Below are positions 1-1,011 of a stretch of 1,011 bases of DNA, piece by piece. Source of the DNA: a phage. The stretch is taken from sequence record OR846562.1; one strand, given 5' to 3'. The translations under genes and the position numbers were made by a program. The notes under the pieces are model-generated. The model saw only the letters and a program-made list of their open reading frames with translations, was not told the DNA's origin and did no database searches. Position 1 is the first letter of the stretch. Each line of letters begins with the position of its first letter.

Positions 1-1011
1 CCCAGCGGACCGTTAAGCTGTCCCCCTGTAATCGGCAATGCACCTACATCACCGGCAGTTGGTTTCATCAGACTATTAAATAGCGTATATGTCTGACCGC
101 TGGTTGAGTTTCCCGGCTGTACTGATGAATATTCAGGTATGCTGTACAGCGTGACATTTGAATTACCGGTGTAATCATATTGCGCAATTAACCAGTACGC
201 ATGCTGGCCGATATTAATATAAATATAGTAATTGTCGCCTGATGTATTAACCCATGCGACCTCGTTAGCAGAAGTCGGCGAGCGTCTCCACAGCGTGGCG
301 GTTATTCCAACAGGTGAACCATTACCGGCACGCAGCACTAATTCACTGATTGCCGCCTGCTCAAAGAAGCCAACGTTAAACCCAGCCCCTCCATATAATT
401 TAATCACCGCAGTTGATGTAGCCTGCGGCATTACAACCGTGGCGATTTTGTACCATCCAGAAGCATTATTAAATGTGATGTTGGTAGAGGTCACGGCACC
501 GATGGTTCTCGCAAATTGTTTTTTGTCAGGGATATCGCCGCCATTACTGTTTTTCGCCAGCCGTCCGTTCGCATTATCCATAGCCGCTTTAAGCGCTTTC
601 GGCGTTGCGGCCAGCGTCTCCGAATCGCTGTTTGTTTCACTGCTTAACTGCACAAACCCTTTTTCGCGGGTTGTGGCGTCCGGATGGTTACGGGATTGTT
701 CGTGTTTTCTCAGCGCATCGCTGGCCTGCTGCTCATTCAGCGTCCCTTTCGGGCGTAAATCCGTAATATTGCCGTTTTCATCAATACCCGCCACCGCAAA
801 CACATAATGCTGTACGCCGTTCTGCACATAATCCGCCAGGTTGTCAGCAACCGTAATACGGGACTGCACACCCCACACGCTGGTAAGTGTTCCAGTCCAG
901 CATACATCCAGCCAGACTTTGACCGGCTTGGTTGTCACGGTAATATTCAGATTTTCTGCAAGCGTTGTACGCAGCCCAGCCACATAGCCGGTACCTTTGG
1001 TCACATAAAAC
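1..1011 (-). CDS. Phage tail fibre protein, internal fragment (both ends outside the window); P2 gpH / Mu S / lambda Stf / E. coli StfR-like family. Codon phase: first complete codon at 1008-1010, last complete codon at 3-5.
   Basis: Hand translation of the reverse complement gives 336 codons with no stop: FYVTKGTGYVAGLRTTLAENLNITVTTKPVKVWLDVCWTGTLTSVWGVQSRITVADNLADYVQNGVQHYVFAVAGIDENGNITDLRPKGTLNEQQASDALRKHEQSRNHPDATTREKGFVQLSSETNSDSETLAATPKALKAAMDNANGRLAKNSNGGDIPDKKQFARTIGAVTSTNITFNNASGWYKIATVVMPQATSTAVIKLYGGAGFNVGFFEQAAISELVLRAGNGSPVGITATLWRRSPTSANEVAWVNTSGDNYYIYINIGQHAYWLIAQYDYTGNSNVTLYSIPEYSSVQPGNSTSGQTYTLFNSLMKPTAGDVGALPITGGQLNGPL. It contains the HEQSRxHPDA...KGFxQLSSxTNSxSETLAATPKAxK motif that I recall as shared by P2 gpH, lambda Stf and E. 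coli prophage side tail fibre proteins. Composition is normal for a folded protein, unlike the Ser/Ala/Leu-rich + strand ORF. Confidence 0.86.
545..704 (-). other. Conserved tail-fibre linker motif (residues about 103-156 of the window translation), the segment shared across otherwise unrelated tail fibre genes
   Basis: Encodes HEQSRNHPDATTREKGFVQLSSETNSDSETLAATPKALKAAMDNANGRLAKNSNGGDIPDK. From memory, P2 gpH has HEQSRRHPDA..KGFTQLSSATNSTSETLAATPKAVK, and E. coli StfR-like proteins continue with a similar DNANSRLAKNQNGADIQDK stretch. This is a recollection, not an alignment. Confidence 0.75.

Follow-up and report, generated by a model that had tools for sequence, protein, structure and literature searches.

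A predicted beta-sandwich knob in the middle of a Mu/P2-type phage tail fiber, and its probably structural role

Where along a tail fiber is the choice of receptor made, and is an exchangeable segment that resembles nothing familiar the right place to look for it? The question is raised by the phage sequence record OR846562.1, whose 1,011 nucleotides (nt), the whole of which we call the window, contain one long open frame of 336 codons on the minus strand (nt 1010 to 3). This frame has neither a start nor a stop and is thus an internal fragment of a tail fiber gene. An initial annotation had viewed the second part of its translation (window amino acids, aa, 157-336) as the distal, fastest-evolving and receptor-binding region of the fiber, where a new host specificity would sit. 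Here, we suggest that this segment carries a conserved knob of ~140 residues, predicted to be a beta-sandwich, that lies midway along a trimeric, Mu/P2-type fiber of a Salmonella prophage. The role of this knob is probably mainly structural, with the receptor chosen by the fiber's tip together with a tail fiber assembly (Tfa) chaperone.

The place of the segment in the complete fiber

The full fiber gene was taken from OR850886.1 (“Salmonella phage S.Kent 1-2-1”; hereafter L001), an unverified 7.8-kb assembly node that has 99.9% DNA identity to the window across its whole length. The complete fiber has 745 aa and residue n of the window is fiber residue n+187, so that the window covers fiber residues 188-523, the flagged segment is fiber aa 344-523, and a further 222 residues lie beyond it. 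The fiber begins with a tail-collar domain (PF12571, fiber aa 3-157, E 8e-31) directly upstream of the window. There follow a Phage_fiber_2 repeat (fiber aa 300-341, in a region that aligns with Mu S residues 97-175), the knob, a KPTAGDVGA linker, a gp34/gp37-like shaft of ~150 residues and a Mu S'-like tip. Within the shaft, aa 525-587 match the T-even distal fiber subunit (PDB 6F45) and aa 604-665 match T4 gp34 (sequence search against PDB chains); the tip, which is outside the window, matches residues 422-485 of Mu S' (PDB 8JU3) with its aa 676-740 (domain E 2.9e-4). The initial annotation had also proposed looking beyond the gene's end for a tfa-like gene, and a Caudo_TAP (PF02413) tail fiber assembly gene is indeed located directly downstream (L001 3541..4116, minus strand, E 4.9e-31). 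Upstream of the fiber gene are Baseplate_J and Tail_P2_I genes. Because of this domain order and these neighbors on either side, the gene can be classed as that of a Mu/P2-type, chaperone-dependent tail fiber. The identification as a tail fiber gene is therefore borne out, although the same alignment places the flagged segment in mid-fiber and not at its distal end.

Much of the initial description of the segment was nonetheless accurate. Both of the peptides quoted in it occur exactly in the minus-strand translation, and the segment does follow a linker, which is the Phage_fiber_2 repeat (74.9 bits in the window protein, for a Pfam cut-off of 22). Internal repeats are absent, as had been stated: no off-diagonal match was seen when the segment, or the entire window protein, was compared with itself by BLAST. 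The enrichment in aromatic residues is real but modest and not striking, with phenylalanine, tryptophan and tyrosine accounting for 11.7% of aa 157-336 versus 8.0% of aa 1-112 and 2.3% of the repeat. The segment was also said to be impossible to place. In agreement with this, a Pfam scan of the window protein revealed no domain at E<=1 other than PF03406, an NCBIfam scan gave no relevant match over aa 157-336, and the PHROGs matches of the window protein were to families named “tail fiber protein” or “unknown function.”

Fold and family of the knob

The beta-strand-like character that had been noted in the segment proved to be real. A first structure model, made with 27 mostly close homologues, had a moderate predicted local distance difference test score (pLDDT 66.9). 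It was superseded by a second model, whose alignment of 48 rows comprised the window segment and 47 sequences found with HMMER, with pairwise identities below 75%. This second model, of a monomer, has a pLDDT of 91.8, a predicted template modeling score (pTM) of 0.82 and ten predicted beta-strands across window aa 174-309. Both models share one top fold match, and in structure comparison the knob model matches WceF and tailspikes, probably in their C-terminal jelly-roll sandwich, while the scores for carbohydrate-binding module (CBM) and galectin folds were weak, at the level that any beta-sandwich reaches. The WceF sandwich consists of 137 residues (531-667) in eight strands, and every chain builds one of its own once a short triple beta-helix has ended and the intertwined chains part; it makes salt bridges to the neighboring chains and has been assigned a role in trimer contact, not in binding (PMC7949094). 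A profile of the 48 family sequences had no PDB sequence match at E<=10, and when the full fiber and two family profiles were searched against all PDB chains, only the repeat, the gp34-like stretch and the tip were matched, never the knob. The initial annotation had allowed that the region might fold as a generic shaft repeat; in the predicted fold it is instead a distinct globular domain, a beta-sandwich of ~140 residues.

An exhaustive HMMER search with a profile of the knob core recovered 220 clusters (at 50% identity) at E<=1e-3, 89 of them at E<=1e-30, in proteins of 72 to 2,682 aa. Their sources include Escherichia, Enterobacter, Photobacterium, Aeromonas, Plesiomonas, Xenorhabdus and Photorhabdus, and the domains that co-occur with the knob include Gp34_trimer, Peptidase_S74, gp37_C and phage_tail_N. 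Over the 117 full-length copies, the knob is followed by a median of 227 residues (quartiles 157-447); it is internal in 111 of them, and fewer than 30 residues come after it in the other six. Among annotated phages, 298 records carry the domain (tblastn), including the distal subunits of T2-type long tail fibers and FelixO1-like fibers. In T2 gp37 (1,341 aa), the homologous domain is at ~aa 811-955 (profile E 3.3e-37) and ends ~386 residues ahead of the protein's end, with the gp38 adhesin gene located downstream; in wV8 gp084 (848 aa), it is at ~aa 473-619 (profile E 5.8e-43). The profile found no match in the gp34-37 region of T4, in lambda stf, or in the fiber regions of Mu and P1. Our literature searches revealed nothing specific about a knob domain in the T2-type or FelixO1-type fibers. 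The segment itself is not new, since by comparison it is a near-copy of sequence in phages already sequenced and belongs to a widespread domain family. The new aspect is a sizeable family with a confident predicted fold that has neither a curated Pfam or NCBIfam entry nor a solved structure.

A KPTAxxVG-like motif closes 41 of 106 family domains on the C-terminal side, versus a background of ~2%. A cassette bounded by such a repeat, with KPTAxDVGA on both sides of the knob, was considered and rejected, since the motif occurs upstream in only 16 of the 106. Two variations in architecture were also observed. Two knob copies occur within one chain in P0145 (aa 156-304 and 473-621) and P0146 (aa 562-707 and 881-1029), from E. 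coli and Enterobacter, and the knob is the last domain in the lambda-Stf-like P0255 (Photobacterium damselae, aa 856-1006 of 1008) and P0251 (aa 645-796 of 797).

Structural node, lectin or receptor-binding region

The close relatives of this fiber, a set of 80 viral-contig loci from IMG/VR that are 77-99% identical in the knob, show what is conserved and what is exchanged. In all 78 whose fiber open reading frame (ORF) reaches a stop, 179-242 residues lie beyond the knob, and the last 120 residues fall into four unrelated tip classes (35, 29, 13 and 1 members). A single knob allele group (single linkage, >=92% identity) is joined to three of these tip classes and to at least six upstream classes. 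All but five of the 80 loci (75) also have a tfa-like gene. The E. coli copies in our first alignment are similarly varied, the knob being followed by Mu S/P2 H-like tips, by a collar domain and His-rich repeats, or by gp34-like modules. The knob had been supposed to be the fastest-evolving part of the fiber, but its ratio of nonsynonymous to synonymous divergence (dN/dS) of 0.07-0.15 indicates purifying selection, and divergence within the exchangeable C-terminal cassette peaks in the post-knob shaft (aa 501-590). Because the same knob is found with four unrelated tip classes, its dN/dS is low and the greatest divergence lies in the shaft that follows, these comparisons make the knob the conserved component of the cassette and the tip the exchanged one.

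The view that the segment is the primary receptor-binding, host-range region and harbors a new specificity is thus largely contradicted, and we consider it very unlikely. That view was correct in one respect, since the segment does belong to the C-terminal exchangeable half and begins directly after the linker, where the variable parts of Mu/P1-type fibers start; it is, moreover, a distinct domain without a curated family. But it is not the tip: 222 residues and a Mu S'-like tip lie beyond it, the same knob is joined to four unrelated tips, the domain is internal in nearly all the full-length family members, and selection on it is purifying. In T2, gp37 is followed by a separate adhesin, gp38, and it is this protein, at the fiber tip, that recognizes the receptor in T2-type phages (PMC9569957; likewise a note in the T4 record). 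Nor is the sequence a novel one, since the knob shares 88-90% of its residues with those of ST64B Sb24 and SJ46, and fiber aa 591-745 are 95-97% identical. No receptor for the ST64B or SJ46 fibers was reported in the literature that we found. On these comparisons, no new receptor specificity is indicated in the segment, and it is not where such a specificity would be expected to sit.

Given its position, its conservation and its one structural analogue, we think it probable that the knob is mainly structural. By analogy with WceF, the three chains would leave the fiber axis after the repeat, each would fold its own jelly-roll sandwich so that a three-lobed bulge results, and the chains would rejoin at the KPTAGDVGA linker. 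The knob could thus serve as a folding and registration node and as a rigid spacer between exchangeable fiber pieces, while the last 70-150 residues and the Tfa chaperone would jointly determine the choice of receptor. It would travel in the C-terminal cassette, switched by an invertase in SJ46 and some relatives but fixed in this copy. A number of points weigh against such a role. It is deduced from the three arguments just given, and we found in the literature no binding or assembly experiment on the knob domain. The model is that of a monomer and the three-lobed arrangement is borrowed from WceF, whose matched part we presume, from its size and fold type, to be the sandwich of residues 531-667, as the fold search does not report the aligned residues. 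The position of the knob at the extreme C-terminus of P0251 and P0255 means that it may be a terminal element in a minority of fibers. Finally, three strongly conserved loops rich in Gly and Asn (GGxGxN...Q, RxGNxxPxG and NTSGDxYD) could equally be a conserved ligand site.

Such a site is at the heart of the main rival explanation, in which the knob is an accessory lectin, a carbohydrate-binding module on the flank of the fiber. It would touch O-antigen, lipopolysaccharide (LPS) or capsule in a second contact of low affinity and so aid reversible adsorption, with the specific contact left to the tip. The composition of the three conserved loops, which are rich in Gly, Asn and Asp, would suit this role, as would the patchy variation among the Salmonella alleles (RRSPTSANEV versus KRSPNGVLEC, SSVQPGNSTSG versus SETKPANATNG) and the company kept by the fold, which includes glycan-processing tailspikes and, weakly, CBMs and galectins. 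The latter similarities, however, are no greater than is usual for a beta-sandwich, the knob's dN/dS is low, and the corresponding sandwich of WceF was assigned to trimer contact and not to binding (PMC7949094). Moreover, the loops recur in fibers whose hosts (Escherichia, Salmonella, Aeromonas and Photobacterium) carry unrelated glycans on their surfaces, and their conservation is therefore better accommodated by a structural role than by a specific sugar site. On balance, an accessory lectin seems to us a possible but rather unlikely explanation. It is quite unlikely that the knob family is an unrecognized lateral glycan-binding module common to T2-type gp37, FelixO1-like and Mu/P2/P1-type prophage fibers, with the loops as its sugar site. 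If this were true, such fibers would touch O-antigen or LPS at a second place, independently of the tip, which could explain O-antigen-dependent adsorption that is not fully covered by the tip adhesins.

The most conserved hairpin of the knob, NTSGDxYD[IV]Y, contains the sole amino-acid difference between the window and L001, a Tyr at window aa 262 where L001 has Asp. Across 165 family domains this column is acidic in 159 (D in 147, E in 12) and is never Tyr, and all 79 of the close IMG/VR loci have Asp. The substitution may reflect an error in sequencing, or it may be real and either tolerated or damaging. In the last case, this private change might destabilize the knob and mark the fiber as that of a decaying, defective prophage, and the related prophage ST64B is in fact defective, through a frameshift elsewhere, in a tail gene (PMC5322425). 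Such decay nevertheless appears extremely improbable: the frame is wholly open across the window, a single base change may reflect a sequencing error or be tolerated, and the 99.9%-identical record carries Asp.

Mosaic history and relation to known systems

The mosaic nature of this fiber is readily revealed by the relatives that align with its different parts. Window nt 6-549 match the Salmonella phages ST64B, SJ46 and 118970_sal3 at 86-88% DNA identity, whereas nt 528-1011 match E. coli tail-collar fiber genes at ~79%; several IMG/VR loci align only leftwards from nt ~684, and the match of PSP3, a P2-like phage, is confined to nt 523-684. Since alignments with different relatives stop at these points, some covering only what lies to the left and others only what lies to the right, recombination joints appear to flank the Phage_fiber_2 repeat, with breakpoints near nt 684 and nt 528-549 that bracket it, and the repeat looks like a recombination linker. 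The cassette itself (fiber aa 327-745) is 81% identical in protein to ST64B Sb24 and 84% identical to the SJ46 cassette. Its synonymous divergence (dS) from Sb24 amounts to 0.40 for the knob, rises to 0.69 for the shaft after it and falls to 0.11 for aa 591-745 (the gp34-like stretch and tip), a roughly six-fold spread which indicates that the pieces have had separate histories. A small extra mosaic patch inside the cassette was also seen at fiber aa 561-590 of the post-knob shaft, with 23% identity to SJ46 versus 77% to Sb24.

In the P1-like SJ46, an invertible segment beside the pin invertase gene has the knob and tip cassette as its silent arm, and the cassette starts at the crossover-encoded peptide KNLGLGE. 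The counterpart peptide in ST64B Sb24 is QNVGLGE, and the annotation of a small ST64B ORF, sb27, mentions a likeness to the pin and gin invertases. An invertible segment in the OR846562.1/L001 copy was rejected, since the 7.8-kb L001 context contains no invertase gene and there is no match to a gix/cix-type crossover site, with up to 3 mismatches, in either the window or L001. The ..NLGLxE.. peptide is likewise not in the window protein. Invertases are present in 13 of the 80 related loci. In four of these (L021, L060, L067 and L091) a Pin/Gin-type invertase gene, encoded on the other strand, begins ~555 nt ahead of the cassette ORF, an arrangement like that of the SJ46 silent arm; in the nine others the invertase is located 1.9-2.6 kb past the fiber stop.

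Salmonella-type fiber sequence (81-86% identity) was also encountered in OR844957.1 (“Enterococcus phage Efm 3-10,” 1.8 kb) and in L011 (“Micromonospora sp. BL4,” 383 nt), which are probably contamination or mislabeled contigs. In representative bacterial genomes, an exact-pattern scan gave 0 matches and a protein-guided scan nothing useful, its only results being two linker matches in Xenorhabdus and the 383-nt “Micromonospora” contig.

The features of the window are collected in Table 1. The E. coli matches of its proximal part are annotated “phage tail-collar fiber domain-containing protein.” A plus-strand ORF of 191 aa (232..807), found again in L001 and SJ46, lies entirely within the minus-strand fiber gene and was rejected as most likely a shadow ORF. 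Beyond the fiber and tfa genes, the minus strand of L001 (606..3590) holds a 254-aa ORF without a Pfam match, an HP1_ORF34 baseplate-complex protein and a 567-aa gp5/VgrG-like spike. Hub and spike genes after the fiber genes are an unusual order, and the record is an unverified assembly node.

Table 1. Features of the OR846562.1 window
Feature	Position (nt)	Strand	Basis or remark
Tail fiber gene fragment, internal	3..1010	-	Open frame; 99.9% DNA identity to OR850886.1
Proximal part after the tail-collar N-terminal domain, window aa 1-112	675..1010	-	~79% DNA identity to E. coli genes
Phage_fiber_2 repeat (PF03406), the “linker,” window aa 113-154	549..674	-	Pfam E 3.6e-21
Knob domain core, window aa 171-319 (fiber aa 358-506)	54..500	-	Extent of family profile
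Predicted beta-strands of the knob, window aa 174-309	84-491	-	
Linker motif KPTAGDVGALP, window aa 316-326	33..65	-	Putative chain exit from the knob into the next shaft segment
Codon TAT (Tyr), window aa 262	225..227	-	Otherwise-Asp position of the NTSGDxYD[IV]Y hairpin

The location of specificity matters both for annotation and for host-range engineering, where swaps should target the last 70-150 residues and the Tfa gene. It would be reasonable to curate the knob family or to solve a structure from it. The segment suggests no new mechanism or receptor specificity, and the finding is a real but fairly ordinary one.

Among known systems, ST64B Sb24 and the silent (Sv'-type) cassette of SJ46 (BI168_gp035) are like this fiber in their knob-shaft-tip order and in the tfa gene that follows. 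The N-terminal half is of the tail-collar type here and different in ST64B and SJ46, the joint being at the Phage_fiber_2 repeat, and SJ46 has both the pin invertase and the KNLGLGE-encoding crossover site, whereas this copy has neither. The S/S' proteins of Mu (G segment) and P1 (C segment) also share with this fiber a constant N-terminus, an NGxDIPxK repeat, a variable C-terminus and a Tfa (U/U') gene, but they are switched by an invertase, which the L001 context lacks. At the place of the knob, between the same motifs, Mu S' has an insert of ~190 residues that ends with the same KPTAGDVGALP-type linker motif; since the knob profile has no match in Mu, this nonhomologous insert must be a different domain at the equivalent position.

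The likeness to Pantoea stewartii WceF (PDB 6TGF), and to the related sandwiches of Acinetobacter tailspike depolymerases (6C72, 8OQ0 and 5W5P), is one of fold. WceF is 16% identical to the knob and gives no sequence-profile match, and its sandwich comes after an enzymatic beta-helix near the C-terminus, whereas the knob lies between the shaft segments of a nonenzymatic fiber. True homologues of the knob are found in T2-type gp37 (T4, in this respect, is unlike the T2-type phages and is without the domain) and in FelixO1-like fibers such as wV8 gp084. These are 33-46% identical and, as here, internal, with 230-390 residues after them, but they belong to lytic phages that have another fiber architecture and another tip system, the gp38 adhesin or, in other family members, the self-cleaving Peptidase_S74 chaperones.
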